64,000 nucleotides of DNA from Phoronis australis (Eukaryota > Animalia > Phoronida). Location: the NCBI GenBank assembly GCA_002633005.1, contig NMRA01000391.1, positions 1-64,000 on the forward strand, written 5' to 3'. The translations under genes and the position numbers were made by a program. The first letter of the stretch is position 1, and each line of letters begins with the position of its first letter. Shown in pieces: positions 2,319-47,274 of the stretch. The notes beneath the pieces are model-generated. The model had not been told where the DNA came from, did no database searches, and saw only the letters and a program-made list of their open reading frames with translations.

Positions 2319-2591
2319 TTAATTTTTCATAAGCCAAGCGTGCTCGAAGTTATGTATCAGCTGCATTCTCATATTTCTTGCAGCAGATTCTTCAATGCTA
2401 CGTTTGACTCTGTTCCTGGCGATGTCCTTAACAGAATAAGGCGTAATGGCCGCACGACTTCGCGAAGGACAAGCACCACTGGCCCAAAATTCTGACTTTC
2501 GGTTCAGTGCGTCTTGAAGTTTTCCCTTGTTGGCAGTAGAGGCCACATTGAACTGCACGTGATCTACGTTTTGGTTGTACAAGAACAGGAT
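2319..2591 (-). CDS. Exon 21 (terminal): ILFLYNQNVDHVQF...RVKRSIEES...HAWLMKN*
   Basis: Acceptor cttttccag, phase 0, open to TAA; contains RVKR. Confidence 0.85.
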   Translation of the reverse strand: MLFLYNQNVDHVQFNVASTANKGKLQDALNRKSEFWASGACPSRSRAAITPYSVKDIARNRVKRSIEESAARNMRMQLIHNFEHAWLMKN

Positions 2592-5500
2592 CTGGAAAAG
2601 AAAGCAATAAGCGGCATTAAAGCCACAGTTTCTTCCAAAACTAATTTTAGATTTAGACCATTTACCGTTACAAACTTCGTCGTGGTCAGCTTTTTCCTTC
2701 ATTACTCACTTTAAAAGTGATCTCTGGGGCACTTTTCATGAAAAGTGATGAAAAACTTGTCTAAGTTAAAATCGCTAGTCGGGCAAGGAAAAGTTTCATG
2801 AAACGGGGCTAGAGAAGAACTAAAATATTGCGTGCTTGTTGAAGATTTATATCAAGTAAAATTCGATCATGTTAATGTTACCGTGGTTTTGTTATCCATT
2901 TGCGTTTCTTTTTGCTAAACGTTACTAAAAAGACGTGGTCACGTGACCCAATTACTAACACATTGGTAAAGTCAAAAATTAAATTGCACAAGCTTTCTAC
3001 TTTCAAGTATCAATGATAAGACCAAACTTTGCTTGATGTAAACGTTCAAAAACCCAGTTACAGTTTGCTAACCTATTGTTTAGTTTTCGTTTGAAGCAAT
3101 TTTTGAGTTTTTTTCATGAAAATCATAAAAGGCCAATTTGTGCTGGCTTCAAACGCGGAACATTCCAAAAGCAATTCCAAACAGTTTTAGAGAACAGTAC
3201 ATTAAGCAAAGTATTTCAAAGTTTGATATGAATCCGATCAGCTACTTCTGAGATACAATGTTCCAAATTTGGCCACATTTGAACATTTTTCTTCGGCCCT
3301 GATAACCTTAACGGTCCACCGTGTTGCGCAAACATCATTCGGAATACTTTAATTAGATTAGCATTGGAGTTTACGGTTTTAGCAACTATTGAGCTCAAAG
3401 AGGCTATGCATTGTTTTCACGAAATCGAGACTCATCACCCACGGTCCGTCCTGTTCCGTAAAAGTGTCGGTTTCTATTTCGCACGGATGAGAATACACAA
3501 CACTCGACTTTAATTTGTTACAGTCTCCGTGAAAGTCATTTGGCCGCGTGCTCAGGCCAGATACACTTATGTTGTTTCCGTTTTATCCTTGTTTTTCCAA
3601 AACAACTTCAAGGGTGAAGCTACACCCACATTTGTTGCAATAAATTTATATCGCGCTGGTGTGATAAATAATCATCGGTCTGATCTCATCATTCGTGGAA
3701 ATTTGGCTTTTGAACATTTACCATTGCTCAGTGACTAGAAATCATACAACTGATCACTAGTTGTGTATGTTGGGAGCAAATGTTCTTATGCAAGTGTAAA
3801 TGAACAAAACAATAGGGTCTGCCGATTCTTTAACTCCCTCGTAGTCCTCTCAAAACGTGCAAGCCAGCAAACGCTCTTGCATTGGCACCCAATGCAATCA
3901 CTGCCCAATATTCATTGCAAAAAAAGGAATTGCTGTGTTCGATCGAAGATCTAGGAATAAATGTTGATTATGTGTCTATGCGTATAAGGAATAAAAGCAA
4001 AGGGTTCCACTCCAAAACATGAAGCAAAAGAAATACTTTCAAAGTAGGCACTGTCATGAGACTTAAAATACATGCCGCGCGTTTGAAAACATTGTTTGAG
4101 GGTCATCCTCTGCGCGTAAGCGACGTTCCTAATAAGGCCTACACACCATAACTTCACGGTGCCATTAATTAAACTTATACATAAGCATCTTCTTTTGCGT
4201 GTGTATATATATATATATATACTTACTTTGATAATGTTAGTCAGTGCAGACACGTCAGTGTTATCTTCAATGTACACGTTGACGGTTCCCTTGGCATTCA
4301 TGGCCAACATTTGTTCTGCGATGTCGTTAACAGGACTCGGGTTCTCTCGACTACTATACAATTTCTCTTCGATACTTTCTGTCGGGACTGGTTTGAATTT
4401 GGCATTCAGGGCATTTCCTGAATAGAATGTTGATGTGTGATTAGGTAACGTTAGGTCATGACGGTGAATGAATAGAACAGCTAAATGTTCACACAGTAAA
4501 AATGAGAAGAATGATAAATTAAGTTAAATAAAAATCAATGATCTTGCATTTTGGACGACAAGTTTTTCAACTATCCGGAGGCGTATTCAGACCTAGGATT
4601 ATTGCAGTTTGGGGTGGAAGATGACGGTTAACTTGATCGCCACCGATGTCGCGCCACTGCAGCCCAGACGTCACCGTCGTTATCGGGGTCCCCGCGCCCG
4701 GGCCGGACCTCACCTCCCCACTCCCACACCCCACCCCACACGTAACCATGCTACTGCTCTTGCATTCCATGTAAGAGCGTATATCTATTTTTACGTTTAA
4801 CTGAACCTTTGAGGCTTTGGAAAGTCGCGATTGAAAGTTTCTGTTACACCACATAACGTCATAACAAATGACTTTCAAGGTCTTTTACGATCCTTAAAGA
4901 CACTAAATCCAAACTTCCTGAGCAAGAATTGATAATCACAATAGTTTTATAATATGTAACATAGACGTTTAAAGTGGCAGTTGGCTTTGTACAGTTTTAC
5001 TTGCTGCCTAAACATGAAAATAGAGTGGAAAGTTGTTTGCAACTGAACTAGTCTCAACCGTTTCCTTGTCATAGTAGCAGCTGTCTTGGTTAGGCCTACG
5101 ACCAGCAAAACGAAATAAGAGCTAGGCTATTGTGAAGTGGCCATTTTTAGAAGCCGTGTTTCTGCTCGAAGTCGTGTATGAATGCATTAATGTGACCTTT
5201 CCACCTATTAGTAAAAACATCATGCAATTCGCGAATATTCGACGAAAACTTGCGTGATTTCGCCGAACTCCCAAAACACTACCCTTAAGGAACGCAACCC
5301 AATATTGCGTCAAGCAACTTCCAATTGTTTGTTGAGGGATACAAAACCGAAAACGTGATGACGTGATGTGGTAACTAGTGTTTGTCGAGCGATTGGCTCA
5401 AGTAATTAGATCGTGTTCATCACACATGCCTTTGACAAAGATACGTGTTTCATCGTTTGCAAATCGTACCGACAATGGAGTAGATCTGTGTATTCTCCAG

Positions 5501-8500
5501 ACACGTAGCTCCCTTCTCGCAAGCCATTGAGTGAAGAGCCGAGTTGGTTCGGTCGCTGTTGTAGAAACGTACATTGGTCGGGTTTTTAAAAGGAACGTTT
5601 GCCTTCTCCACGTAGTTTTTCAGAAAGTTGATGCACGAGGTCACTTTGTTGCTCCAAGTTTGTCCTTCAAAATTCAGAAAATATAATCTCATAATTGATA
5701 GTTTGTAGAAAGACAACCTGCTAATAAACATCAGGCAAGTATGACCTCAATAGTTGATTAGTTACTCAGTTCCTTGTTTGACGACGCATACCGCGTTCAT
5801 TGTGACATTTTAGGAGTGCAAGCAGGACGTACAATCAGAAGACAGACCAGCAGCTTAAAATTAGCGCGCACCACTGCGGACGACCGACCCTCATGACAAG
5901 ACGCCAACTCCACAGTCGATGTTGATGATGAGACGGCTAAGATCAGGCCAGGAACGTCCGCGCGTGTCTTTCGTGAATTAACTGGCCACCTAACCACGTC
6001 CGTCGACACGACGGCTCTGTCTGAATGTTGGGCTGCAGAAAACGGCCCCAACACATCCGGTGTTATCAGAATCGTTATCAATATCAACCCGTATTTGAAA
6101 GAGAGAAAAGCTAGGCGAATTTAGTATCTTAAAGAAATGGACTACGCTCCATCTTCTTATATAGTTATTCTTCCCCAACGTGACGGGTGTTGCTCAATAT
6201 ACTGCACAACAAAAGTGACGAAATGATAGAGAGTAAACAATTTCGGTACTTATAAATACAATCAGTTGTTTTGTGTTACTAATGTGGCAACTATTCATTG
6301 ATGGCGTAATACAAGAGTGAGCAATTGGTCTCAGACACAGTGCCAATTTTCCTTATCATAAAAATATGAACCACTGGATATCGAATGCAACACTTGAGAA
6401 TGTAGTGAAAGATAAGAGAACGCCCAAAACAATAAAAATCGTTAACAGGAATTCATGGTTACGACAATGGCTTCCTATAAGCCGTTTTACAAATAAGTAG
6501 TAGAACGTTTATGAGCAAACAGCCAATCACGTGTGACTCCTGTGGGCTAACCAAAGTGTATTCCGTGGATGCAAGAAACTCAACAGCAAACCCAATGTGA
6601 TCACATGACCACGGACGCTCATGAGAGGGAAATCTGTACATATCTCAAAATCGCTCCTGGCTCAGGATATGCATACAATGCGCCATAAACAAAACATTTC
6701 TCAATTTGAAGTAACGTATTTGTAAAATATATGAACGTGACAATTTAAGAAGTTATTAAGGTTCTTTGTTGTTTTATTTCTCTGGGTTCTTTTGGTTATA
6801 TAAATAACACATCTTCGGAATGAAGGTAAACTTGGCACTATAAGAAAAACAATTGTGGGTGGATTTGTGTTCGTTTAAAGGCAGTCGTTATTAAATGATT
6901 TTTCTGCTAGCAAGGAATCTGGCAATACCCTCTAACGCTAAGTGGTTGAATTATGTTATTTACCGGTAGGGATCGGAAGAAGGCTAGATCTTATCAATAT
7001 TGCAGTTTGCACGTCATGGTGCGAGGTTTAGCCGCATTTAAGAAGTCACGCATGGTCCCGAATTGACCTTTCGCCAGGATTTTGAGTGACGATTCAACTG
7101 ACCAATCAGACGCAGCATTCTGGACACACCTTCTTTTCCAAGCTGGCATTTTACCCGACAAAGACCGCGCTGTCGGGTAAAACGTATTGTTTGTTTGTCG
7201 ACTTTTCGTAAGGGGGCGGAGCTTGCGATAGCTCAATTGCCGACAACGACTCAGTGGTTGGCCTTTTATGATTGAGGATTCGTTAATAATGTCGAAACAC
7301 TGCCGAACCTAGCATCACTTAGGGTAATCTCAACTTATACAGTATGAAACTGGACTGTAGCTTCCTCACGATTTCACTTCTGATAAGACGCCTTGTGAAC
7401 GTTGAATAAAACTGGTCGCTTCTCACCTATTCCGAGTCCGCAACCACAGTGGTCGACAAAGCACTTCTTAATGTCATTCGTCGGAATCATTCTTTTGTTC
7501 AGAAGAGTCTTTAACTTCGTTTCCAGTTCTTGTTCCACTTCCTGTCGATTTGTCAGGGTATTTGGACAGAACTTAACGTTTTCGTCTGAACATTTGTTGT
7601 CGTTGTCTGTCTTTAATGTAATGTAATGTAGATTTTCGCCAAACGGTGGAAGTTGGCAGGCCCTATTGGCATTCACAGGATTAATAATAGGACCTCCTGA
7701 AATTAAAGTAAAAATCAGTAAGAACACTTACTGGAAGACATTAGGTATCACGTATGTAGAGTGTGGGCCTTTGATGAGCAATACTTATAAAAACTTGAAA
7801 CACAACGAAATAAATATTGAGTAGCAAATCAAACTTGTAATGCAAGTGTCGACAGAAAAACTGATAAATTGTGAACAGTGTCTGATAACTGAAAGGAAGA
7901 GAAGTGGAAAACTACAAAGATCACCTCCGTTGATCTGATTAGCGAAAGACTCCAAGTCCTTGTACCATCCAGAATTTCCCACTTCCCAGATTTTCATCCG
8001 TTTGCTGTCACTTTCCTTTGTGCGGATGTCAAAATAAAGCTTGTCCGTGTGAGCTCCGATGCCAATGAACATTTGTTTGCTGCTCAGGATTGATGTGCAC
8101 ACTTGGGTAAGTTTTTTAGAGAGTTCTAACAACGTGTTCTTGGAGCCAGACTGTATCTTTAGTTCAACAGCTTGGCCTGTTTGAAACCTGTACCTTTCTT
8201 CAGTGTGGCGTGCGTCAAAGGCTATCCTGTTCTTAGACCTAGGTCGGTAAGCAGATTTCTGAATTACTTGGAGATTAGGAAATATGTCCTTAGTTTCCTG
8301 TAAGCATTCAACTAGGCGTTCATCCAGACGGAAAAATCTGAGGCCCGGATACATAAAGGTCGCTATGGTGAAAGAATCAGACAAAGGTTGCCCAGAGTTG
8401 GAGCCGTCAAGAAGCTTCGTCTTTCTTGATTCGCTCTTCATTTCTTCAGGATATTCATACTCGGACTGAAGGTCAGCAGGAACGCTTACAACAAGAAGGT

Positions 8501-11500
8501 TTGCGCCTTTCTGGAATGAAACTATTTCGCCGAGTGTTCCTGCTTGAGCCTGGACACACACTTCAAGTCTTGTTGCCGTGGCGAGTTTTACGTGGTCAAA
8601 TCCAGCACACTGCGCCAAATGGGACAGGATTGCAACATCAGCAGCACTTCCACCGTCAAGTTCAAGTTGTGCTGCTCTGTGAACAAAAGCAAGAGGTTGA
8701 TTTTAAGGTTTGTTTTTACGGCGGTACTGGAAACATATGTTAATACGTTAAAGTTAGCAATGACTATTGAGCTTGCAATAACTCACGTCGCCTTACTGTC
8801 TGTTTTCTGCATCGTTTCTGATACCGAGGCGGTACGAGCATTGCCCAGTCACTTACAGAATATCTTCTGCATCGCGAAGAGAGTAATGTTGGGTTATATA
8901 GAACCGGTAATGGCTAAGTGTCGCCAAAACTTGAAACAAAAATCAGTCGTGCGCAGCTGTAAATGCCCGACACCAGGACTTTGGCGACCTGTTTGATAAC
9001 CATATTAGACGATTATCGTCTTGATGTGTGTACAGTAGACACAGTCACCGCAACCGACCGCCTTCAGTATGAGTAACATTACTGTTGTATTGCCTCTACT
9101 CATCATAAAGGCACAGCAAAAAAGTACAAACAAATGTACCTGCTGTTTTTGCTCAAAATTTCCATGAAATGGACATGGCTACATGTAATAATGGATGTGT
9201 TAAGTGGGAAATTACTATCAATTTTATTTCAAGGAACTTTGTCCTGCGGTGACAGAATTGGTATTAAGGCACCCCTCTAGTATACGAAGGACGTCACAAA
9301 ATCAATAGTTCACCATTCCAGAAAGAAGTCCCGTTTCACTACCACTTACAGTCTAAGCAGAGAAATTGCCCAGTGATTTCTCACAAATGTGCGACCGAGT
9401 TCCTTTTCCGGGATAACAAATGTAATTCGTTTCAGTCCCTAACATGAATTAAAGGGCTACCTGATGTGGCCCCATTTGGTTGGGACGTTACCACCAACCA
9501 CGTCAAATTAAAACTGCATGGTGACTTTTTGAGACTATTTGTTGGATGATGTATAGTACGTTATGTTGAGGGATGGAGATGTGGAATTGAGAAGTTTATG
9601 CCTTTCTACGTACTGAGAAAAAGGAAATGGCCCATTAAGAGTACTGTTTAAGATCATGTTATGTGGATCAGACAACTACACGACGGATTTTCCAAGTACT
9701 TCAGACCACTAAACTTTTTGCCAATGTGATCTACTGAAAGACTTTCTAAACAGACTAAGCCAAGTTTTTGAAACTGCGAGGGTGCACTGTTTTACTAGTG
9801 ACTCCCTTATGATTGATGTTTTTTAAAACAAATTTTTTAACAAAAATTCTAAGATTTGCATCAGCAATTGCCTGATGTTTCTCCACAACACCTAATATGT
9901 ACACGTATAAGTATCATTCAATTCCTGAATTACATCAGGACCTCTATACTCAAAGAAATTTATGGACGTAGAGCACAAAGAGTGGTTTTAAAGCAAACAG
10001 CGTAAGTTTTCTCATTCTTACCACCTATTGTGCAAAGTCCTAAAGCCATGTCCGTACTGTTCTGACAAAGTGCCGTAAAAATAGTTATGAAAATAAGGTA
10101 GCATCATTCTACTTTGGATTTCGACACAATACTCTGCAATCAACTGGAAACCTACAAGCTTTCATTGTAATAGCGAAAGTACTTGAATCTCTAATCATGT
10201 AATAGGCCAAAGAAAACATTTTTTTCTGGTCCAACTCACTTTTGAGACCTGCGCTCTCCCACTAAATCAAACATCGCCGGCCCGTATCAACTTAACCCAG
10301 GTCTGGTGGTGTTTTTTTTTTGAAAAGCTGTACAAAGGTACGTAAGCACGATTAGAAACGTCATGATTTGTCATGAAATGATTGAAAAACAAATCCCGCA
10401 TCATTTTGTTGTCTCTGGTGTATTTCCACGTTTGAAAAAGTGAGCAACTAAAATGTACCACGTCAATGACCTGATTTCCAAAAAACACAGACCAAGGACC
10501 GGGGTATAATCATTGTGCGAGAAACTTGGAAATATGTTTCACATTTTCTGTCATACATGTCAGTAAAACTCAAGCTAAATGTATAATATTCTGTTCTCGA
10601 GTATAAATTATTGTTTATGCATATGAGTTGCTAGTCCAAGTTTGCATTTGACCCCTAGGTTCGAGTTAGAAACTCATATAAAAACTTTAAAGTTTTGAGA
10701 TTTCGAGTAAAAACTCGAAATTTCGATCCCAGACTTGAACTTCAGCCCTAATGCTAGGGTTATCGAGTGCAAACTGAGATTAGACAGTTATTAAAGCCAC
10801 CCATTTTGTACTCGGGCATAGAATAATAAACATTTATTTCGAGTTCACACAACAGCAGTTGAATAGAAACTGCCAAAAATGATATCGAGTTCGATTAGGC
10901 TCCAGTCCCTGAGCCTATGCCTTAGCTGTCGAACACACAGTTTGTCAAAATAATCGAGAGCCGGTTATTCCGTGTGAAAAGGTAAAGAAGAGAATTACCT
11001 GCCCTCGTAATGCAAAGAAGAAGTCCCGTGCTTTCCCTTGGGGTATTTTGAAGTTGGTTCATCCCATGCTTCAATTACTTTCAATTTCTTCGGCGTAGCT
11101 GTAATATAAACACCATGCGCAATGGTTTCGGTAAAGCATCGGACGAGGGTATAATTTTAAACAGGAAAGCTGATAATACGTTAAGTGTATAAGTTCATTC
11201 ATTTTTGGAGAGTCAATCGCATCCATCCATTTGGATGGTTTACCTACATTGTGAACACTACTGTTCATTGTTCAACGTTCGAACTATGAAGATTAGTTTG
11301 GTGCGTTCTCAAAATGACGAAATGGATGTTGTTGTGCTAACTGCACATTGATGTGAAATTTAAGACAGTTTGATGACTTGTTCGTTTGCACTGTTGCACA
11401 GAAGCATCAATTAGGCACTTTCACTTTTGCACAGCTGTCAATCATCACTGAATTGTACTTACATTTAAAAGGATACTAAACCGTGTTATGATGATTTCAA

Positions 11501-13077: not shown

Positions 13078-13109
<32 letters not shown>

Positions 13110-37100: not shown

Positions 37101-40100
37101 TGATGTCTGAGTTTGACTTCGAGGTTAGAAGAAAATGTATAATTTCATACACTTCAGATGAATCTTTCCAGAATCTGTTTTGTGAAAGAGCATATGTAAT
37201 ATGCTTCCTGTAAATGAATAGAAATAAACAAAAATGAGTGCAGAGAGGTGAAAAACAATTGATTTCAAATCTCAATTTCACATTTAAAAGAAGACCTTGA
37301 CGTTTAGCGTTTCAGATTATTAAAACCGGTGCGGCTTAATACCTACCGATAGCAAATACTCCTTGAACTTAAGTTTGTTGTCCTTGTCGCGGTCCATTAC
37401 CAATTTACTGAAGTACAAATAAAATGATTTGGATTCAAAGCGACATTCGTGTAAGTTCCTGCCATATAATTTTCGTATGCAATCGCCAAATACGGTGAAC
37501 CATGCGACTGCTCCCATTCAGCAACGCCACATTCTAGGAATACCTTCGATCCTTTTGGATATCATAATAAATAATCATGATCTTAGCGTCTGGACAGTGG
37601 TTGAATAAGGTCGCATCGTACAACAAGTATTAATTGTGGCAATCAAATCATATAGAGAAGAGTTCCGTGTGAAGTAGGTACTCTTTATGCGAAACATTCC
37701 AGTTTTTAGACTAAAAATCGTAGTTCGGGATAACACAAGGGTCAAGTTGAAATTATTGTAAGAGAACCGCTTATTCGCACATTTTTTCAAAAGGTGATCT
37801 TTCATTTTCAAACGCTGAGTTGTTGCCTTTACGCTAGCTTTCAATGGGTTAATAATTCAGCTGTTGGTACTGCCTTAATGGTTATGATTAGTTTTGGAAT
37901 TTAACAAACCAGTTGCTTTGCATCTAACATTCGAACACGATTAGAGATATACATGTATGCCCACTACGGAGTGATTTTCTGTGGTACTCAGTCGTCAGCT
38001 AGTGACTGCCCAGTCATACATGAAGATAAACTAATTTTGATTAAAGAGACAATCTGAATATTTTTCATGCTTTAATGAAACTGAACAATTTTCAACTTTA
38101 ATGTAAATTCAACCTAAAACTTGACTTTCGATCAGAATTCATCGTCCGCGTCCTTTTAACTGACTAATATAATTTGCATAGGTGGTGTTCAAGATTCGCC
38201 ATCCCTGATATACCGGATTGAATGATCGTTGGTCGAAGTGTTAGCAGTACTTTATGACGTTGGCGTAAATCTATTTCACGCAAACCAGACCTACGTAATT
38301 TAATGGAAAAAGTTTAAACCCTCAGCCAATTAATCCATTCAAGCTTTGCCGAAAGCAGTAAAGTGGAAAATAGCGATTTTTAGGGCGGTTCTTCCATCAC
38401 TTTTAACACATTTCATCATACCAAAGATGTAACCTTTATATGTGTTAACAGAGTTTTGTACCAAGGCTACTTCTAAATTAGACAGACCCCCTCCCCGCGT
38501 ATTCCCCCACCCCCGTCTGGGCTGTCGCCTCTCGGTGTGGCGCGCTACCACGTCTAAATCTATTTAGTAGGCCTACTATAAAGTGCCAATACCTGTGGAC
38601 ACAATACTCACAATGTTAAACCGGCTTTAAAATACAAGTAGCAGTCTTCGCACGTTAGCTTTGACTTTAACTCTGCGTTGAGGACCAATTTGGACGTGTC
38701 CGTTTCTACATTCTTTTCTGCTTTAAACCACGTATTCTCCACCGGATCAAAGCCAATGTTTTTCTTGTTGTCTGTAGAAACAAGGAATTCCCCTCCAGAT
38801 TTGTCTGCCTTTACGTCGTAGTTGACGCCTCGACCTATGTTGTATGCAGGATTCCAAGTAAACCCTTTGTTTTTCGGCAGAACGTCATCAAGTTTAGGTT
38901 CACGTTTTTCTCGACGGTGTACTTCTTCATGGGAACTGTTATCATACGTGTTGTTGTTGCTGCTGCCCTCTTTTGGTGGCGTATGGTGGTAAAAGATGTC
39001 GGCATGGTCAAACAAATCCCAAAAACTGTAAAATAATTGTTTTCAACCGTTAAAATGTTTGAAGGTGGATTTTGTTTTGAGAATACTGAGAAAGACGCCA
39101 CTTTAGAGGCAATAAATGGGCACGCTATTGCTTTATCTCCACGATAAGTCAGTTTACTAGACACGGCTTCGTGTTTTCTTTATTAAATTCTCGTTTACGG
39201 CTAATTCGAATGTACAGATAGCTATTATGAAACAAGTTTTGGAACCTAAAGGTCTTGGAAGAATTTTGATTTGAAACAATTGTTGTCTACACATTCTGAC
39301 TGTGGTATACGATTCTTGAGGATACAGTGAAACGTCTAAAAAAAGAAATTTTTGAAACCATATATCAACTACAACAGTGCATGAAACCAATTAACACCCT
39401 CCGTTCCCTGCTAGTCAGACCCAAAGACCCAACCCCGATGGCTAAACAATGTGGGATCATATACCAGCTGAAATTTGACCACGATCCTAACCACACCTAC
39501 ATTGGAGAAACCAAGAGGCCGTTCCTCACCAGATTCAAAGAACATCAGAAACTAGATAGACCAACAGCTGTAGGGGAACACATATTGGCGATTTGGCATT
39601 CCATCTCTCTTGCGCCATCCAGGATCCTAGCCAAAGAACAACACTGGTATGCTCGCAAGCTAATAGAGTCAATAAACATCAGCATTCAGAAACGGGACCG
39701 AGGCCTCCATTTACCTCCCATGTATTCAACCATTATTAAACAGCGAAACGCGGTAAATCCCTCGTTCATTGACAAAGACCTGGCGGACCAAGTCGAAACG
39801 TCTGCAAACAACCCACCACGTCTCTAAGTAAGTGACCATCTCATACTACAACACGCGCGCATCCAGCCTTCAATATTAGGGGCTTGAATTCCTGACGTTG
39901 TGGACCTTTTGCTAACAAAAGAGCTAGCGGACTAAAAAAACTAAGAAACAGGCGCACCGCTGTGAGTTGCGCGTTTGCGCTTATTTAGTGGACTGTCTGT
40001 CACATACTCTCGGACTTTTTGTCTCTCGGAGGAGGACGTTTTTGTCCACATCGCAAAACGGGGGGTTCGTTCGTGTCTCTCTTTTGGACATCGTACAACC

Positions 40101-43100
40101 TTTATGACGTCAGCGATACAACGAGACAAATCTCAAAATGATATGACAACACGGCGGAGAATGGCAGCGAAATTTTTGTTGATGCTGAGTCTTGAATCAG
40201 GATAAATTAAGGTAAATTAGGATTTTTTATCTTTAAGAAAGAATGAAATGTAATGCCAGGTGTCAGTTACTTCAATCAATAATTCTATGCAAATTTATAC
40301 TGAACCCAATCCCAATGGTCGTTTTGCTTTCAGTCATACCGACGTTTATACATGACCTACCCCATTGACTGATGAATCTGCTGAAAAATGCGTAAGCTTC
40401 TCGGGACAGCCACTTGGGAATAATTGCCTGACAACCCATTCTTAGACAGACAATCTCTGTTCCATGACCATTCCGTGAACAGTCGCCCACTTCCCGATTA
40501 CGTNGCTCACTTCAGTGAAAACGTGCTCTTATTCATACATACTTCGAAAGAAAAAGTCCATGAAAACTTGTTACAAAACAGATTTTCCACAACAAATTGA
40601 TTTGAATTTTTAAATTCAAGAAGAAAATTTGTAAGCAGTGCGAAGCTGTATTTCTGCAAGGTCCACTCTCTGACAATGGATACTGGAGTTATCTGTCGCC
40701 CTTTTTTCTCCATCTTTTTGAAATTGGATGTAGTTGATCATAGATCTTCGTGTTTTTGTTTTTACATTATTCTTTTTTTAAGGGACCACTCACGGGATAG
40801 GCAATGATGGAATCAATTGTCTCTCTTTTGGACATCGTACAACCTTTATGACGTCAGCGATACAACGAGACAAATCTCAAAATGATATGACAACACGGCG
40901 GAGAATGGCAGCGAAATTTTTGTTGATGCTGAGTGTTGAATCAGGATAAATTAAGGTAAATTAGGATTTTTTATCTTTAAGAAAGAATGAAATGTAATGC
41001 CAGGTGTCAGTTACTTCAATCAATAATTCTATGCAAATTTATACTGAACCCAATCCCAATGGTCGTTTTGCTTTCAGTCATACCGACGTTTATACATGAC
41101 CTACCCCATTGACTGATGAATCTGCTGAAAAATGCGTAAGCTTCTCGGGACAGCCACTTGGGAATAATTGCCTGACAACTCATTCTTAGACAGACAATCT
41201 CTGTTCCATGACCATTCCGTGAACAGTCGCCCACTTCCCGATTACGTTATTTTTGGCCTACATGTACTCCTACATTAGTGAAAATTTTGTCGCGTGAGCG
41301 TACGTCATGATATTAGAAGCGCACTACTATTATTTTAACTATTTACCTGGCTTCCACTGATATAACATCTACCCGTGTGTTGGTTTTAATGTCGATAGTG
41401 GCTATCTTTCTAAAAATCCCTTTATCTGGAGCGTGGGACAAACCTGAAAATTACCAAACACAAATCAACTAAGACTCCATGTAAGCTTACATGTATAGTG
41501 TACGTAACACAGATGATAAAATGGCGACATCGCGTGGCTCTTTGTACAACTGCTTAACAAAAAGCCCAAATCCGCTGTAAAGCATGTTATGGTCTCAAAA
41601 ACAAACTTCTTCACAAGCGCATTTGCTCTTCCAAAGAAATGTTACCTCAGTCTTCATCTTTTGAAATGAAATTGCTGACATTGAGACGCCTTCGCATGAA
41701 GGACAATGCGTGTTATGGTGACCGAGGCTAACCGGTGGTGACAACCCGCAACTCAGTGAGCTTTACTCAAACAGATGATCTGTCTAGCAATAACGAACTG
41801 TTAGTCTTTTATAAGCTTAGAAGCCTTTTCTAATCCGAGTCAGAAACAAGGTGAGACCAATGTGGTAAATGGCCTAAATGAAAAGTTTTCTGACACAAGT
41901 TAGGGATTTATTGGAGCAGTCCCGGGATTTAACATCACAGCGATTCATTGATTTTAATCACAGTCAGCCTACAGTATAGGCCTATGCTTCGATGATGTCT
42001 TTATTGCTTGAATCCATTCGGTGATAAATAGCCTCAATTGGCGATCCTGTGTTTAGACACACGGCATGTAGTCCATCGAGGAGAGGAAAAGCTTTTCACA
42101 TACATTGTTCCTTCGCATACTTACTACAGCAATGCTGCATTGCGCGAAGTGGCACCAGCGATCCGATTGTGCCTGACTGTGTTAGTCGGATTCTTGGCGT
42201 CTTCAGTTAGGCATCATGAGTGTATAAGAAGTCTAGAGGAACCTTAAGCTCAATCGGATGAAATTGAGCGTCATATCGCCTGGTGCGCACAATGTTAAAA
42301 ATGGTGAGTTACCGATTTTGGGAACTGAACGGGCGAGGGACTGCTCGAAGAAAAAGTTTGATGACTAGAGCATTTGTTCAAGTTGCAAGGAATTAAATAT
42401 ATACACGTCCTCCTAACATGGGCAGCGCACCACAGGGGGGCTGAGGGCTATAGCCCCCCACTTTTGTTCAGTGCTGCGCCGCCCATGCCTAAGTTGTCCC
42501 TGTGCAAAAGGTATTTATAACAACGTACCATTGATGTTTTAGTCAGTGCAAGGCATAATTCGCCGAAAATCTTCCGGCGTATGAAGCGCCTATAGGAGCT
42601 TACTGGCTCCGCAGTAGAGACAGTGGTGACTGTCTACTCTCACTAAACAGGAGGTTCTTGCGGAACAGCTTCATCGTACCAGCGCACCTGGCGGGCACCA
42701 CAGTTGCTCTTGTAAGGCGTGTCATTATACACGATCATTTCCATCACCCAGCTCGGCTTGGTGGGAAAAGTTGCTGTTTGCCTTGTTGAAAAGTACACGA
42801 ACGTACAGGTCGAAGTTATTAGAATCTTTGCTCATTGCATATTAGTGGAAAATCAGCGTTGATCGGGCAGTACACGGGGTACCGCATCATATGCTGTCTT
42901 GGCCCCAGCTGTGTCTCCCATTGTGTCTACATAATCAATGGCTTGCCTGCATCCTCGATGGCATCCTCTGTGTTTGTGACTTTTGAGTCGTGACTGTAAG
43001 TAACGTTGTATTTTTTTCTCGTGTTTCATTTTAATTCTGCCTATTGAACTTTAGACATAATCAGTCTCGGGCTTGAGCTGTTGTTCGTTGTGTCACGTGA

Positions 43101-46100
43101 TGTTACCAGTCACAGTTGCAAGGTGTCGCTGATTGAAGTTGCCACTAAGATGCAACTGCTAGTGAATAATACGAATTGCTTGTTTCACAACTGAACTACT
43201 GCGTCTGCTGGGTCACATTATGTTGCCACAAATAAGTTACGGTCGTAGTAGGCAATTATCTGTGTGCGAGATTAAAAGAGTCATCTCTCGCGTACTGACA
43301 CTACACCACGTTCAAAAGTCGGTGCCATAGACCTAATTCACGCGGCGGACATTAAAATCCAAAGCGAGGCTCGCTGCGATAAACAAAGCGGAAGTTGACA
43401 TTGTGTGAATTAAATGGCCAGTCTTTGGAGTCCAACCTGGATATTAAATCTTAAAAATGTGTCAATAAGTAACCGCAGAGACGTAGAAAAATACATTAGA
43501 GAACAAGTCAATACACCAAAGAACTGTCTAACGAAAGGGTATAAGTTTTTTCGGAAAACTAGATTCGAAACATGAAAAGTAAATATGACCAAATTACGGC
43601 GATCGTATTGTTACGGATTAGGTATGCTGAATGCAGTCACGTTTCTTCTTATAAATTCTGCTTTCTACACCAACCAGGCCATCTGCTCGTATTGTTGACG
43701 ATTTGAAGATATATTCGCCAGTGGTGGCTCATCGCAGTTTGCTGTCATGTGCAGTTAGTCACATCTGGTTTAATTTGTTGATCAAGAGTATTATCTTCAA
43801 GCATAGCCTAGGCCCTGGTGAGGTAAGCACTACCGGGACTAAAAGTTGATTTGTCATTGAGCTGATAAAATAATTGATGTTATTAAATAAAAAAATTATT
43901 GAGATAAAAACCAGGCTCGCAATTGAAAATAAAAATTATTTGAACATCAATTCTGCTTTCTTGGTTTTAATAATTACGTCTATTTCATGTGTTACATTTT
44001 TCAAATATCAATCTGGACCAAGTTGATTTTTAAAATTAAAACACCTGATTCTTTCGTCCAAAGCATAACCTCGTCTTGGAGCTCAATTTCAGTTAACTGG
44101 ACAGAACACTGACAGTGGCGGATTTAGAGGGGAGCCAAGGGAGACGTGCCCCCCCCCCTAAAATTCTCCCAGATTCCTTGGCAGTTCAGGACCGCGAATG
44201 TCTGACGGGAAAAATCCTGGCTTATACTCTGCCCTGGCCCGCCCCCCAACTCAAAATCCTGGATGCCCCTGGAACAAGTATAGTTATCATGTTTCTTCAG
44301 GGGCCTCGTTCATATCCGAGGGGAAAGGTGCGTGTGCCGGCCTTCTGAGAGGGGAACGTTTCGCCAAGTGACTGAGGTGAAAAATCTACCTGATCCCGTT
44401 CACCATAAATAGCACACCCGCCCTGGCTGTTGCAAGTTCTCATAGGCTCTGTCCCAAGTAGCATTGTGTGCTTTTTTCAAATTGTCAACTCTATGGATAC
44501 AAGTGATTTGAATCGTCGGTGAGAAATTTTCAATCACTAGGGGAATTTGTAGGCCTCGTGGGGGGAATTTCGCGTGATTTTTCCATATTTTTGAGAGGGG
44601 AATAGGGCCGATATTGGGCCCCAAAATCGAGGGATTGAGGGCCCTGTACTTTTTGGAAAGAAAAATGCATCACGTTTCAACCCGTAACCATGAAAACACA
44701 GGCCGGCTGGCCGAAGATTCTCCGGTCATTGCTATGATGCTCGGCAACCGAGATGCGACAAAATATGATCTAACTTTTCGAAAACATTTATAAATTTTAC
44801 ACTGACAATTTTCCTTCGTCGCGGCGTATGGCAAGAACCCAACGCTTCTGAATCTCAACGTCCTTAGAGATTGTAAAACAGACAGTTGAGTGTCCGTATT
44901 TTTTCAAGCCGTTCGAGCAACGCGGAGTACAACTACATGTAGTTTACACAATTGGTTTAGTTTGTAATCGCAATACCAAATTATTAATGAACAATGTCAG
45001 CAATGTTTGTGACTGATGACGTGTTACTAAGCATAAATGGTAAAATTGTAACGTGTGTAGTATGTATCGTACCACATTAATTAAAGGAGCTATCGTAGCG
45101 AACCTCGTTTTGGAACGCGCCTCTTGTCGGCGTGAATTAGGTCTATGTGCCAGGACAAACTTTGTCGGGATCAGCTTGTGCATATACTTATATATTTTTT
45201 ATATTTTACGTACCTAACTGACACTCCCACTTGTCATTTCCTGTGATGACGTCACCTACTCTCCACTTTTTGACAACATCACTGTTTTCCATGGCCAGAA
45301 GTATAGTGTTGGAGACGCACATAACTCTCTAAAACATAAGAAGAATAGCAATAAGTAATAGGCCAGATTTGAAAAACTTTTAAGGCGCTGCTTGTCGGAA
45401 CCCACATGCACTCATAACTAATTTTATGTGCACCCGGTATTCAAAAATCGAACATCATAACAAAAATAACATTAGAGAGTACAGACATTGTGAAAACCTG
45501 ATATTGAATTCATGAACTCAGTAGTTACTATCAATGTCTTTCGCATTGAATAAGTGACTTTTGAATCCACAAGTCAAATATAGGTATATTTAAGAATAAG
45601 AAGAGTTGAGTTACTACAAGAGTAAACTATCTACTGCATTAACAGGGTTAACGTGGAGGGTTCGCCTGAGTTATCGATATACAATATTCGGCAAGGATAT
45701 ATGCCACATATCTGTAGTTTAACGGTTCCCTCGTGACATCCTTGATTCTCAAATGAACGTTCAAGGTATTCACTCCTGAGTTGACATTTTGCAAATAATT
45801 CGAACATTAGGATGGTGTTTACAATAATCATGAAATGATCTCAGAAACCCATACACGGGTGAGAAACAACATGACCGCCGGTCCTCTAAACAGGACCTCC
45901 GGGGATCAAATGGGACCGCCGCACCAGAAAATGGGACTGACGCACCCAAAAACATGACCGCCCCACCACAAAACAGGACCGCCGGGGACTAAAACCGCAA
46001 CAACTAACAGGCTAAGATTTATTACCGTTAGGCCTACACAGATCATACAATGGGGCTATATACGTATGCATATGCAGGTCTTGTGCCNATGGTGTTTACA

Positions 46101-47274
46101 ATAATCATGAAATGATCTCAGAAACCCATAATACCGAAACAAAATGACGGCTTTATAAGCCCAGTGAAATAGGTCAAGCATGGTGAAAAACAACTTGATT
46201 TGAAGCGACGATGTGAATCCTAGCTCGCGCTTGTGTTGAAAAATGTGCGAGATTCGCATAGATGAACATGTGGGATTTTACAGGTACTTGTTTTTTTTTT
46301 CAATATTTGTTATTCTCAGTTTATTCAAAAAGTAGTAGAAACAGCGGAGCATTAGAGCCAACTGAAAATGAAAACTCTTCGACTATCTCGTTGTAACGAG
46401 ATAATCGACCCTCTTTATATTTTTGATTGGCTCTAATATTCCGCCGTAGTTATAAACGGTACCATAAAAATAGAAATTTGGCGAACTCATCGTAGTTGTC
46501 ATACATGGGACCGGCGTACCTTCTACTCACATAAGCAAGGTTTTCACGGACAGGTTGCCTACCAAAGGGTGTGTTGTTCAATTAAATTCCCTATGAAAGG
46601 ATTCAGTCTATTGAGTAGGATTGACTATGGAAAGAGTTCATTTTTGCAGACAGAACTAATAAAGGCTTATGTTCCATTCAGGCATGTCTGCCTAAAAAGA
46701 TGACAATCCAACATGTTATTTACTGAAATTTTATTCAATCATTAGAAGTCCTGATTATACGAATAAACCAAAAGTAATGATCGACATTGTCACCGAAATC
46801 CTAACCCTAACAATGGTGTTTTAATTGTACCACCTACCTATAACGGCCCGCTTCTTAGTTGAAATCCAACATTCAGTTTAAAACTTGTCAAACAAGGTAT
46901 TTTGCTCAAAGCAAGTCTCAAATATCGTGAAACATGACAGTGTTAATTTCTAGAACGAAAACCTTAAAAGAAAAGAACAAGATCGCTATACAAAATGCCA
47001 GGAGTCTTAAATTCTTACCAAACTTAAGTCTTTTGTAATTTGCAATCAAAAATTGATATACCTTCAGTCCCACGACAGAGTTTAGATCGATGAAATTTCT
47101 GAATTTCCCTCTGCTTGTCAAGATCTGGACTTCGCCTGTATGTGGGTCATGGTAATGGAAGTCCTCTTCAAAATGTTGCCCGGACGCTCTGCCGTGGTGT
47201 GGCAGTAAACCCACTACACATCCAGGTAAGATTAATAGCGTCCACAAGAGGACACTTGTTTTCAGACATTCCAT
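2319..47274 (-). CDS. 21-exon gene: secreted mosaic protein (signal peptide / beta-rich region / Hedge-like 1 / ComEC-type MBL / Hedge 2 / peptidase M15A-like / Cys-rich C-terminus), ~1,725-1,738 aa
   Basis: Exons 47274-47062, 45328-45214, 41443-41347, 39025-38612, 35283(or 35244)-35202, 35141-34895, 34201-34074, 32427-32348, 28256-28110, 26073-25915, 25567-25440, 23978-23724, 23168-22146, 13724-13586, 12028-11820, 11098-10999, 8676-7925, 7696-7427, 5664-5470, 4417-4227, 2591-2319. All GT-AG with matching phases; sum 5217 nt (divisible by 3). Hedge motifs are rebuilt across junctions. Confidence 0.82.
4227..4417 (-). CDS. Exon 20: NALNAKFKPVP...SALTNIIK
   Basis: ttctattcag acceptor, AAA|GTAAGT donor, phase 1->0. 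Confidence 0.85.
5470..5664 (-). CDS. Exon 19: QTWSNKVTSC...CLENTQIYSIV
   Basis: ttttgaag acceptor, G|GTACGA donor, phase 1->1, Cys-rich. Confidence 0.8.
7427..7696 (-). CDS. Exon 18: GPIINPVNANRAC...CFVDHCGCGLGI
   Basis: atttcag acceptor, G|GTGAGA donor, phase 1->1. Confidence 0.85.
7925..8676 (-). CDS. Exon 17: end of Hedge 2 (LAQCAGFDHV...LEVCV) plus peptidase M15A-like domain
   Basis: LSDSFTIATF...LDERLVECLQ...SAYRPRSKN...GQAVEL...IGIGAHTDKLYFDIR parallels the Peptidase_M15_3 pattern (LSxxF..SGYR..N..H..G.AAD..GIG.Y..FVHVDVR); phase 2->1. Confidence 0.85.
10494..10911. mobile_element. Diverged TIR element rich in AAACTCGA motifs (same family as 54432-54835)
   Basis: Ends caaggaccgggg.../...ctccagtccctg; repeated aaactcga/tcgagtt. 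Confidence 0.5.
10999..11098 (-). CDS. Exon 16: Hedge 2 core KLKVIEAWDEP...GKHGTSSLHYEGR
   Basis: Matches Hedgehog KLRVTEGWDEDGHH...SLHYEGR; tattacag / AG|GTAATT; phase 1->2; absent from the ORF track. Confidence 0.92.
11820..12028 (-). CDS. Exon 15: Hedge 2 ELTRYAMDDMIFSNEE...CQDRIMTTRLLFRLRRLA
   Basis: Matches Hedgehog ELTPNYNPDIIFKDEE...ADRLMTQRCKDKLNALA with a 5-Cys insert; phase 2->1. Confidence 0.9.
13057..13121. repeat. (GT)n/(GCGT)n microsatellite
   Basis: Direct reading. Confidence 0.9.
13586..13724 (-). CDS. Exon 14: start of Hedge 2 (LSVGKSSPS...CKPMIQAITRDGERFR)
   Basis: ITRDGERFR resembles Hedgehog ITRNSERFK; ttcttccag / AG|GTTTGT; phase 1->2. Confidence 0.88.
14200..14540 (-). 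mobile_element. Fragment of IS3EU-like (integrase-core) transposase N-terminus
   Basis: FNLGLSQK...IISVRHLRRLLSRLELARRNSYSDIDDVIGFIDRQLSTPGQQHSYRSMHHKC...ILSAVDPGG resembles the HTH region of these eukaryotic DDE transposases. Confidence 0.6.
14772..14820 (-). ncRNA. Minimal type I hammerhead ribozyme (Penelope-associated)
   Basis: Minus strand: tgactt CTGAGGA t GGTGT ttaataaatg ACACC GAAA CATGTC aagtt; intact CUGAnGA and GAAA core, 5-bp stem II, palindromic stem III, GUC site. Confidence 0.75.
14772..15016 (-). mobile_element. Penelope-like element 3' end with short 5' inversion
   Basis: Minus strand encodes REALHISWCKPNLNRQLTHHRLSLLV* (typical C-terminus after the PLE GIY-YIG domain); perfect 23-bp inverted repeat 14960-14982/14994-15016; hammerhead downstream. 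Confidence 0.75.
15493..15556. repeat. 22-bp unit x3 minisatellite (ctgagttattatcctagtccaa)
   Basis: Units start at 15493, 15515, 15537. Confidence 0.75.
16744..18412. mobile_element. Non-autonomous Kolobok-like DNA transposon, copy 1
   Basis: TTAA|AGGAGCATGCCACCC...GGGTGGCATTCTCCT|TTAA; empty site gctcatTTAAgtattct at 60012; THAP-like remnant on minus strand (GYKVFFLLPRE..LRKWL..IRVC). Confidence 0.88.
18449..18518 (+). other. tRNA-derived sequence (A box TGGTGTAGTGG, B-box-like GGTTTGAATCC), probably not a functional tRNA
   Basis: Pol III boxes present, D and anticodon arms pair poorly; paralog at ~60048-60110. Confidence 0.6.
19224..21139. mobile_element. Non-autonomous Kolobok-like DNA transposon, copy 2
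   Basis: TTAA|AGGCGAATGCCACC...GGGTGACATTCTCCT|TTAA; colinear with copy 1; plus strand has YQFKPEYTD..LSWCQ*ANC..CICCHEIPQV..HPGF (P2X7C/KolX-like), minus strand has a THAP-like remnant. Confidence 0.88.
21257..21404. repeat. Purine-rich (GGAG/GGAC) low-complexity tract
   Basis: Direct reading. Confidence 0.75.
22146..23168 (-). CDS. Exon 13: ComEC/Rec2-type metallo-beta-lactamase fold, catalytically degenerate, then poly-Asp and RKKR
   Basis: LRIYELPVGNGDFTLIQCP, GLVLRLVYKTFSMLFIGHL, VYRLSQHG, FLDKVKPIVILSSG parallel ComEC motifs (VGQGD, SLVL..FLFTGD, LKVSHHGS, FL..V.P...IIS.G); HxHxDH replaced by TRGYLAQ; phase 1->1. Confidence 0.88.
23724..23978 (-). CDS. Exon 12: C-terminal half of Hedge-like 1 (KIMVRGAW...AEGRLLTL...LSCSGFCKV...VEVAV)
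   Basis: Parallels KLRVTEGW..EGRAVDI..AVEAGFDWV..IHCSV; phase 1->1. Confidence 0.8.
24332..24512. mobile_element. MITE family B copy
   Basis: TIR caggggcgga...tccgccactg; flanks atggt/gtggt; homologous to 44113 and 50734. Confidence 0.8.
25440..25567 (-). CDS. Exon 11: Hedge-like 1 LSNLKRDDIIFDNDDAHYMSPTMKTKLVKFA
   Basis: Resembles DIIFKDEE..DRLMT.R.K.KL..LA; C|GTAAGT; phase 2->1. Confidence 0.85.
25915..26073 (-). CDS. Exon 10: SFNIIPLGFK...PPCGKEGTAITKKTDE
   Basis: tttacag / AG|GTAAAT; phase 2->2. Confidence 0.85.
27097..27677. mobile_element. Non-autonomous Helentron/Helitron-like element with (GGAC)n and terminal hairpin
   Basis: (GGAC)n at ~27599-27627, then hairpin atgcgtccacatat-aa-atatgtgggcgcat and an A run; internal short direct repeats tgccactag. 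Confidence 0.55.
28110..28256 (-). CDS. Exon 9: VKPELLLGLEAEL...VKLTLAVVGHK
   Basis: tctttcag / TG|GTGAGC; phase 2->2; amphipathic beta pattern. Confidence 0.85.
30915..31121. repeat. tRNA-derived SINE fragments
   Basis: B box ggttcgattccc on minus strand (~30935) and A-box-like gtagctcag on plus strand (~31081). Confidence 0.4.
32348..32427 (-). CDS. Exon 8: VEVSVGLAWGLSEFVFEIALLAPVAI
   Basis: tattgtag / GG|GTAAGT; phase 0->2. Confidence 0.82.
33608..33688. mobile_element. MITE family C copy (spans an N gap)
   Basis: catgggcggcgcagcactgaaaa...ccatg, reverse of the 42417 copy. Confidence 0.6.
34074..34201 (-). CDS. Exon 7: NKKIGDAAA...ITGSLSIYPK
   Basis: tttttcag / AAG|GTACAT; phase 1->0. 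Confidence 0.85.
34360..34624. mobile_element. MITE family A copy
   Basis: catgcgcgcacccag...ctgggtgcgcccatt; flanks aacaa/tacaa. Confidence 0.8.
34895..35141 (-). CDS. Exon 6: FKASAKLNIDVKLKVTG...FHSTAEFSW
   Basis: gtcttcag / G|GTAAGT; phase 0->1; long amphipathic beta strands. Confidence 0.85.
35202..35283 (-). CDS. Exon 5: SFESK*YHRLEIRIQKDILTNVILGKK (in-frame TGA), or a shorter form starting at 35244
   Basis: Perfect donor AAA|GTAAGT; the only phase 2->0 bridge I found between exons 4 and 6; two possible acceptors. Confidence 0.6.
35945..36164. mobile_element. MITE family A copy with perfect 5-bp TSD CTTCA
   Basis: cttca|catgcgcgcaccc...gggtgcgcgcatg|cttca. Confidence 0.88.
36812..37053. 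mobile_element. MITE family A copy with perfect 5-bp TSD TAAAG
   Basis: taaag|catgcgcgcacccag...ctgggtgtgcgcatg|taaag. Confidence 0.88.
38612..39025 (-). CDS. Exon 4: FWDLFDHADIFY...HRREKRE...LTCEDCYLYFKAGLT
   Basis: ttttacag / TT|GTGAGT; phase 2->2; furin-type site. Confidence 0.87.
39370..39810 (+). mobile_element. Penelope-like element 3' fragment (GIY-YIG endonuclease)
   Basis: KPINTLRSLLVRPKD...CGIIYQL...TYIGETKRPFLTRFKEH...AVGEH...RKLIES...RDRGLHLPPMY; followed by a degenerate hammerhead at 39769-39803. Confidence 0.88.
40074..41247. repeat. Near-identical ~430-bp direct duplication (40074-40503 / 40818-41247) across a single-N gap
   Basis: Only ~2 substitutions seen; first copy ends exactly at the N at 40504. 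Confidence 0.85.
41347..41443 (-). CDS. Exon 3: LSHAPDKGIFRKIATIDIKTNTRVDVISVEA
   Basis: ttttcag / AG|GTAAAT; phase 1->2. Confidence 0.85.
42417..42487. mobile_element. MITE family C copy (71 bp) with perfect 5-bp TSD CCTAA
   Basis: cctaa|catgggcagcgca...tgcgccgcccatg|cctaa. Confidence 0.85.
44113..44271. mobile_element. MITE family B copy (reverse orientation)
   Basis: cagtggcggattt...ggatgcccctg. Confidence 0.75.
45214..45328 (-). CDS. Exon 2: RVMCVSNTILLAMENSDVVKKWRVGDVITGNDKWECQL
   Basis: gttttag / G|GTACGT; phase 0->1. Confidence 0.85.
45871..45995. repeat. Degenerate ~21-bp minisatellite (aaacaggaccgcc-like)
   Basis: About six diverged units. Confidence 0.55.
47062..47274 (-). CDS. 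Exon 1: signal peptide MECLKTSVLLWTLLILPGCVVG...FIDLNSVVGLK
   Basis: ATG in aacATGG context, hydrophobic N-terminus, AAG|GTATAT donor, phase 0. Confidence 0.85.

Follow-up and report, generated by a model that had tools for sequence, protein, structure and literature searches.

On its minus strand, the window (the whole stretch analysed, 64,000 nucleotides of eukaryotic DNA from Phoronis australis with about 41% GC) carries a gene running from 47274 to 2319, whose 21 exons splice into a single open frame of 1,731 amino acids plus stop. This gene is an architectural variant of the named but barely studied Hedglet family, and the main new points that it brings out are family-wide. The conserved core of the family is a C-terminal domain with a predicted CD38-like fold, which was absent from the original prediction made for this DNA. 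Three features are apparently unpublished, as we did not find them in print: the CD38-like C-terminal fold, the presence of the core in a sponge and a choanoflagellate, and the insertion of a metallo-beta-lactamase (MBL) domain as one exon.

Hedglets were named in lophotrochozoans, amphioxus, and echinoderms by Jägers and Roelink (2021, PMC8052667), who described them as Hint-less invertebrate Hedge proteins predicted to be unable to catalyse and, from a comparison limited to a core of about 105 residues, suggested their derivation from Hedgehog (Hh). According to the same source, every animal with Hedglets also has Hh, while choanoflagellates and sponges lack it. We found no architecture given in its text or supplement text, and sponge or choanoflagellate members are not among the Hedglets listed there. 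Within the literature we searched (most subscription journals were outside its scope; PMC9695228 provided further background), the word Hedglet occurred only in this paper and its preprint, and an architecture combining Hedge with MBL, M15, or ADP-ribosyl cyclase was undescribed. The P. australis protein had been proposed as a third, uncharacterised class of animal Hedge protein. A third class it is, but one that already has a name: a listed Hedglet (XP_002607850.1) belongs to the cluster of homologue P0035, which aligns to P. australis residues 1059-1728 (670 aa) at E = 5e-63.

Gene model and surrounding sequence

RNA reads from four runs (X1-X4) were aligned to two 20-kb stretches of the window, with introns 1, 2, and 20 lying outside both. 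Of the 20 introns, the 17 within the two stretches all showed GT-AG joints in stranded reads. Read counts per joint were 14-117 (X2), 10-79 (X3), and 0-3 (X4); expression of the Hedglet gene differs strongly among these samples. The splice from 22146 to 13724 across an 8.4-kb intron, on which the proposal of a single gene hinged, was present (27 reads in X2, 39 in X3), and one 1,597-nt X1 contig spans this joint together with exons 12, 13, 14, and 15. Homologues cover the remaining junctions. Five of them are in register across junctions 1 and 2, gap-free save for a two-residue gap in one, junction 20 is crossed by single BLAST alignments, and the frame ends in register with the homologue C-termini. 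The RNA evidence is a chain of short-read joints, not one end-to-end molecule. With 17 introns established by RNA, the rest by homologue alignment, and the frame open throughout, the gene was rightly predicted to be one spliced unit, and we confirm that the 21-exon Hedglet gene is real, expressed, and animal.

All exons lie on the minus strand. Exons 1 (47062..47274; residues 1-71) and 2 (45214..45328; residues 72-110) are placed by homologue register. The first contains the ATG, a likely signal peptide (47274-47209), and the beginning of a small N-terminal domain; the second has two in-frame donor options, the alternative being at 45223, that give 1,729 or 1,732 codons. Exon 3 (41347..41443; residues 110-142) has its 3' junction from RNA. 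Exon 4 (38612..39025; residues 142-280) carries an R-x-K-R convertase-type site at residues 180-183 (38913-38902) and begins the beta-rich domain, which continues through exons 5 (37347..37407), 6 (34895..35141), 7 (34074..34201), 8 (32348..32427), and 9 (28110..28256) and ends in exon 10 (25915..26073), where the first Hedge domain (Hedge1) begins from 25967. A candidate exon at 37208-37151 was dropped, as RNA places exon 5 at 37407-37347. The degenerate Hedge1 occupies exon 11 (25440..25567), and its C-terminal half, devoid of Zn-binding histidines, lies in exon 12 (23724..23978). The entire ComEC-type MBL domain is held by exon 13 (22146..23168; 1,023 nt, phase 1-1), together with an acidic linker and an RKKR site (22197-22186).

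The second Hedge domain (Hedge2) has its N-terminal part in exon 14 (13586..13724) and continues through exon 15 (11820..12028), where calcium-site acids E1084, E1085, and D1113 surround a four-cysteine insertion, and exon 16 (10999..11098), which contributes E1148, D1151, and the sole retained Zn-ligand histidine, H1168. It ends in exon 17 (7925..8676), with Q1175 and E1210 at Zn-ligand positions; the same exon encodes an M15A-like domain with its N-terminal extension (8540-7932), including F1336, E1343, and Y1386. The CD38/ADP-ribosyl-cyclase-like domain has a Cys-rich start in exon 18 (7427..7696) and extends through exon 19 (5470..5664), where E1569 likely corresponds to the CD38 signature glutamate, and exon 20 (4227..4417), which contains the invariantly acidic position D1632 as well as K1641, inferred to stand where CD38 has its catalytic glutamate. 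Exons 4 to 19 are supported by RNA, as is the 5' junction of exon 20. Exon 21 (2319..2591), placed by homologue alignment, contains the end of this domain, an RVKR site (2411-2400), a conserved 26-aa tail, and the stop. The five motifs that had been reassembled across exons were all located on the minus strand (IFSNEE at 11997, DRIMT at 11898, EAWDE at 11072, SLHYEGR at 11018, and AGFDHV at 8606).

The window holds further features beside the gene and within its introns. On the plus strand at 56062-60790, open stretches with splice-like ends (56062-56331, 57426-57590, 58993-59106, and 60220-60387) suggest that a multi-exon gene lies next to the Hedglet gene in head-to-head orientation; a Pfam scan of the four pieces gave no match. 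Broken frames on the minus strand at 52900-54400 look by eye like a remnant of a DIRS-type reverse transcriptase, and the two pieces scanned had no Pfam match. Intron 3 contains a plus-strand ORF (39300-39827) with a weak GIY-YIG match (E = 0.003), which we take to be consistent with a Penelope-like retroelement remnant, as well as two almost identical direct copies, about 440 bases each (40054-40516 and 40812-41249), beside an N; this duplication could be real or an assembly artefact. An intronic repeat at 26905-27677 has an RNA depth of about 400-550x on one strand in every run, and its two borders show mixed loose ends; the reads probably stem from many loci of a transcribed repeat family. 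The repeat-rich part of the 8.4-kb intron (16500-21100) likely consists of transposon remnants; it matches THAP weakly at 18046-18288 (E = 0.043) and is heavily covered by RNA reads that map to several places.

Domains from the N-terminus to the M15A-like region

We show that the domain order is a likely signal peptide, the beta-rich region, Hedge1, MBL, Hedge2, the M15A-like domain, and the C-terminal domain. Profile, BLAST, and exon scans bore out the earlier view that two Hedge domains are joined to MBL and M15A domains and that the protein, having no Hint, VWA, or cadherin, is neither Hedgehog nor Hedgling. The Hedge fold itself is common to Hedgehog and P. australis, but Hedgehog has Hint/Hog, whereas in P. 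australis the M15A-like and CD38-like domains follow Hedge2 up to the stop. The P. australis Hedge is also internal and doubled, with two of three Zn ligands and the catalytic glutamate replaced and a Cys-rich insertion. Hedgling (Hedge-VWA-cadherin-EGF; Bürglin, 2008, PMC2362128), reported there from sponges and choanoflagellates as well, resembles it as a large extracellular protein with a Hint-less, non-catalytic Hedge. It differs in its N-terminal Hedge and in its VWA, cadherin, and EGF domains, none of which was found in the P. australis exons scanned or in 23 family proteins. Of these 23, 20 matched HH_signal, whereas not one matched Hint, VWA, or cadherin.

Residues 3-21 form the most hydrophobic 19-residue stretch (mean hydropathy 1.89), and the other windows above 1.5 fall where the model of a homologue has beta strands; the Hedglet protein has no clear transmembrane helix. 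A signal peptide and secretion are likely from this profile. Convertase-type sites (R-x-K/R-R) are found at residues 183, 1009, and 1705. The first recurs in homologues P0005, P0013, P0017, and P0023 and the second in P0013, P0016, and P0023, and at the third the arginine (R288) is present in all 24 rows that reach it, with the tail behind it conserved. Two cephalopod homologues have no such site. Cleavage by a furin-type convertase at the three positions is likely, judging from the motifs.

A model of the N-terminal region of a homologue (pLDDT 74, pTM 0.59) is nearly all beta. The beta-rich third had no confident fold match; the best Z (6.6, rmsd 9.9) is in the range of generic beta-sheets. 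A possible resemblance to fungal DUF7223-type domains found no match in a Pfam scan. Its best matches, all weak, were to MTP (Foldseek E = 9e-3), ApoB, and lipovitellin (Z about 5). These would fit a structural or carrier protein (a lipid or pigment carrier, or a component of shell or mucus matrix) in which the curved beta-sheet does the work and the pseudoenzymes serve as scaffold. We consider such a role unlikely, the matches being within generic beta-sheet similarity and one of the two Hedglet types described below lacking the region altogether.

The Hedge domains were scored with a profile of 47 out of 62 bacterial pattern matches, the other 15 being not Hedge-like or too short. Hedge2 (residues 1034-1214) reached 79.2 bits. 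Hedge1 (residues 546-626) reached 4.6 bits, compared with 1.6 for the best of 200 shuffles; its alignment runs through the entire Hedge fold, and in a quick midpoint-rooted tree it groups on a long branch with molluscan first Hedge domains (SH-aLRT 90). A family profile matched Shh at E = 1.7e-23 and retrieved only Hedgehog chains, and no CD38, from the PDB. Relative to the zinc motif of Hedgehog, H-x6-D and H-x-H (10.1101/276295), the ligands in Hedge2 are H/Q/E (H1168, Q1175, and E1210), with A1204 at the position of the catalytic glutamate, and Hedge1 has no Zn-binding histidine. Our ligand census comprised 29 rows, P. australis and 28 homologues, excluding three with a disrupted Hedge2, bacterial-type proteins, and duplicates. 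The first histidine was present in 18 rows, the aspartate in one, and the third ligand, a histidine, in none. As judged by these alignments, the Zn ligands are shown to be replaced in both Hedge domains, H1168 of Hedge2 excepted, and the catalytic residues appear to be lost. Acids stand at five of the six Shh calcium-site positions in Hedge2 (positions as given in PMC8052667) and are kept in only about half of the 29 rows.

Two side observations concern Hedge sequences of other organisms. In two bivalve homologues, P0016 (residues ~590-905) and P0020 (at its start), an unrelated insert that looks lysozyme-like by eye lies inside Hedge2; no Pfam, PHROG, or PDB match supported this identity for P0016. 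Five Hedge proteins from Chloroflexota (L012, L020, L026, L035, and L053) form a long-branched clade with extra cysteines, one of them right before the AGFD motif as in Hedglets. A special link between Chloroflexota and Hedglets was not supported: in the quick midpoint-rooted tree, the bacterial sequences included (21 of the 47) fell into a single clade, separate from the eukaryotic ones.

The M15A-like domain of exon 17 matched Pfam PF08291 below cut-off (E = 0.033), and it had an Atlas value of 0.93. Three metagenome proteins named LdcB/YcbK, presumably bacterial, matched it at E of about 1e-11 and have the N-terminal extension in common with it. These three keep the zinc ligands H, D, and H, which in P. 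australis are replaced by F1336, E1343, and Y1386; across the 29 rows the first histidine is found in 13, the aspartate in one, and the last histidine in none (Y or F in all 29). The single-exon Pfam and NCBIfam scans were all below curated cut-offs, and single-exon sequence searches of the PDB gave only chance matches apart from a weak one to ComEC.

That match (E = 0.028) came from exon 13, which alone had no Pfam or NCBIfam match. Residues 9-243 of the exon matched ComEC/Rec2 and MBL proteins in tblastn (best E = 1e-5), a pairwise alignment with a ComEC/Rec2-family protein over about 240 aa gave E = 2e-11, and the Atlas value to a ComEC cluster was 0.95. The proposed fold similarity to ComEC-type MBL domains therefore stands; what had been overlooked is that the domain is an insert. 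An MBL profile found it in none of 67 stored proteins from the family search. The spacing between Hedge1 and Hedge2 is 548 aa in P. australis vs. 207-235 aa in four molluscan orthologues, a difference close to the 341 aa of exon 13. By these comparisons the MBL domain is an insert made up of a single phase 1-1 exon that the molluscan orthologues lack, likely a later addition via exon shuffling. A truncated Lingula model starts with a stretch resembling the MBL tail (2 of 5,000 shuffles reached its score in a targeted test, and an untargeted profile search gave it 1.6 bits only); the insert may thus be common to the phoronid and brachiopods.

Could the MBL exon be a separate gene, joined with at least one neighbour into an artefactual model? 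Three introns lie outside the RNA stretches, the reads are short, and no complete homologue has an MBL domain. Against this, both junctions of the MBL exon are confirmed by RNA on one contig within a frame that is open throughout, and the molluscan orthologues are collinear on both sides, with a gap in spacing of about the length of the exon. We regard an artefact of this kind as very improbable.

In the P. australis MBL, the HxxxDH-type metal motif and the downstream D/H ligands are replaced, as seen in an alignment with two bacterial relatives. Unlike the animal domains, bacterial M15A/YcbK-type and BacHh peptidases and ComEC-type MBL hydrolases keep their metal ligands. Nuclease or peptidase activity is not supported, because the metal ligands are gone from the Hedge, M15A, and MBL domains alike.

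The predicted CD38-like domain and the distribution of Hedglets

The structure of the C-terminal domain was predicted for the matching 314-aa stretch of a Haliotis homologue (32-39% identical to the P. australis exons) with a 32-row alignment, and gave a pLDDT of 93.5 and pTM of 0.91. Every match that Foldseek listed was to CD38 or to Aplysia ADP-ribosyl cyclase, with a best E of 1.4e-4 and a probability of 1.0. In an independent search of 48,161 chains, Aplysia cyclase came first (Z 11.1, rmsd 3.9, 203 residues aligned), followed by CD38 (Z 11.0), CD157 (Z 10.4), and two bacterial toxin domains of this kind (Z 7.9 and 5.9). The domain is about half helical, and middling Z values are common in such searches, but the three top chains belong to one family and the unrelated rows had at most 5.0. 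Overall, about 200 residues align with known cyclases at an rmsd of about 4, Z of 10-12, and identity of 9-16%. The conserved C-terminal domain of the family is therefore predicted, from this model, to have the CD38/ADP-ribosyl-cyclase fold. This predicted fold also relates it to CD157 and the bacterial Tox-ARC domains (Zhang et al., 2012, PMC3482391), and it differs from the CD38 family in following Hedge and M15A within one fusion protein, instead of standing alone or being anchored in a membrane. Zhang et al. list Tox-ARC domains in choanoflagellates and metazoans, and their supplements might include Hedglet-type proteins. Pfam Rib_hydrolayse gave no match in 10 homologues at E ≤ 10.

The key residues described for CD38 are a TLEDTL signature, W125, W189, and E226 (PMC6368836, PMC2785692), and those of Tox-ARC are [ST][DE], S, and E (PMC3482391). 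We mapped them from the offsets at the ends of the structural alignments, the spacing of motifs, and in part the CD38 sequence, rather than from a residue-level superposition, so the register is inferred. On this mapping, over 27 rows, the TLEDTL signature is not kept (only L-E stands at the likely position, with E in 14 of 27), no conserved tryptophan is found at the places expected for W125 and W189, the inferred E226 position is K1641 in P. australis and E in only three rows, and columns 216-234 hold no conserved acid. The domain thus appears to be without the catalytic glutamate. Column 215 (D1632) is D or E in all 27 rows, and column 152 is acidic in 18. In 23 of the 27 rows, S, T, or D stands three residues before the invariant acid, at a predicted helix start, which we take to be a helix cap pattern.

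These data bear on whether the domain could be an active NAD-consuming enzyme working through D1632 or E1569, with the dead Hedge and M15A domains targeting bacteria, either as a domesticated effector of the polymorphic-toxin type or as an ecto-signalling enzyme. The three cyclase matches above the next chain and the Foldseek probability speak for it, as do the two acidic columns and the retention of the domain family-wide; ADP-ribosyl cyclase domains are, moreover, known C-terminal toxin domains of bacterial polymorphic toxins (PMC3482391). The loss of the signature, tryptophans, and E226, the helix-cap-like setting of the invariant acid, the low identity to CD38, and the lack of a Rib_hydrolayse match and of any CD38 match with the family profile count against it, and we consider enzymatic activity improbable.

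Searching exhaustively with exon 17, we found 60 proteins, 38 of them at E ≤ 1e-10; 30 were looked up and 24 named. Word-seeded searches with exons 13, 15, and 17, restricted to longer proteins, had found no homologue, a blank that reflects their sensitivity limit since the exhaustive search later gave 60 matches. A scan of metagenome contigs gave no relative, and the one phage match from tblastn was rejected, being weak and antisense to the annotated genes. The animals named as holders are invertebrates of marine or other aquatic habitats, and we distinguish two types of Hedglet among them. Type A Hedglets (about 1,330-1,490 aa; Sinanodonta, Haliotis, Batillaria, Argonauta, Octopus, Pecten, and Saccostrea) combine a beta-rich N-terminus with a pair of Hedge domains, M15A, and the C-terminal domain, and the molluscan proteins of 1,327-1,490 aa are collinear with the P. 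australis protein. Type B Hedglets (about 900-960 aa; Branchiostoma, Asterias, Anneissia, Glandiceps, Owenia, and Potamilus) have one Hedge and no beta-rich region, and several have a detectable extra M15A-like domain in front. XP_002607850.1 falls in the type B clade (about 920-960 aa, one Hedge), whereas P. australis is type A with an MBL insert.

A quick, midpoint-rooted tree of 47 rows, made without cluster duplicates and matches aligned over ≤200 residues, separates the types. P. australis falls within the type A group (SH-aLRT 100), where Lingula is its nearest named relative (SH-aLRT 90-91). The family extends to a homologue of 2,253 aa in the sponge Oscarella pearsei, which adds trypsin and PLAT to the Hedge-M15A-CD38-like core, and to one of 2,145 aa in the choanoflagellate Craspedida sp. 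UC1, which adds C2 and Peptidase_M15_4 (E = 3e-10, H/D/H motifs intact). The sponge protein also has a VanY-like stretch below cut-off (E = 9e-4), and a peptidoglycan-binding repeat suspected in it had no Pfam match. The choanoflagellate protein has weak matches to endolysin PHROGs and an N-terminal region that is beta-rich by eye (19% in alignment), to which BLAST gave no link from the P. australis N-terminus. Three environmental proteins (P0041, P0046, and P0060) group with it (SH-aLRT 99), which suggests further unicellular members of the family. Both trees contain no animal Hh or Hedgling and hence are no direct test of Hedglet vs. Hh origin; that a sponge and a choanoflagellate both have the core speaks against an origin of Hedglets from Hedgehog.

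Possible roles of Hedglets

We tentatively favour a reading of the Hedglet protein as a secreted, convertase-processed multi-pseudoenzyme that binds microbial surfaces. Convertase cleavage would give one chain with the N-terminal beta-rich region, Hedge1, and MBL and another with Hedge2, M15A, and the CD38-like domain. The dead LAS-fold clefts would hold peptidoglycan stem peptides without cutting them, presumably much as non-catalytic PGRPs do, and the target would be bacterial cell-surface polymers in mucus or gut. We favour such polymers because the relatives of the core are cell-wall peptidases and its accessory domains include the intact M15_4 of the choanoflagellate and the VanY-like stretch of the sponge. 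All the enzyme-fold domains are predicted from their residues to be inactive, and the earlier idea of a microbial sensor is plausible. Loss of catalysis does not imply that the clefts still bind peptidoglycan; they could instead bind host glycans or proteins, or be structural. The holders include predators (Octopus, Argonauta, and sea stars), so a link to filter feeding is not clean.

A possible, if more doubtful, role is that of a secreted matrix or cell-signalling protein, for which Teneurin, with its reuse of a dead bacterial toxin domain (PMC3482391, PMC3417536), offers a precedent. The calcium site of Hedge2 would then engage partners in the host (Cdon/Boc/Ihog-type, Hhip-type, or proteoglycans), or else the convertase fragments and the 26-aa tail would signal; Hedgehog signalling might be modulated in animals that have both genes. 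The five acids in Hedge2, the conserved convertase site and tail, and the presence of Hh in all Hedglet-bearing animals (PMC8052667) are in line with such a role. The calcium acids are retained too unevenly among homologues to speak clearly for it, however, and Hedge2 is missing the N-terminal segment through which Shh binds Patched (PMC8052667). Being internal and without Hint, it would also receive no cholesterol by autoprocessing, which counts against signalling, as does a core present in two lineages without Hh. Modulation of the Hedgehog pathway is less likely as the ancestral role.

Beyond the binding of microbial surfaces that we favour, there is a bolder version of the enzymatic reading, to which we give little credence: that Hedglets are a bacterial-conflict protein domesticated before animals, in which dead, peptidoglycan-binding Hedge and M15A domains deliver an active NAD-consuming domain with a non-canonical acid. 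Its accessory modules would be swappable, with an active M15 peptidase in the choanoflagellate, VanY-like and trypsin modules in the sponge, and MBL in P. australis. If this were true, Hedglets would be a new family of antibacterial or feeding effectors among choanozoans, and they would preserve in living organisms the setting from which animals acquired the Hedge domain, ahead of Hedgehog signalling. The core common to a choanoflagellate, a sponge, and many invertebrates points to a third, older Hedge lineage tied to bacterial cell-wall and toxin-type domains, and with the predicted C-terminal domain the CD38 fold would gain a large unannotated branch.
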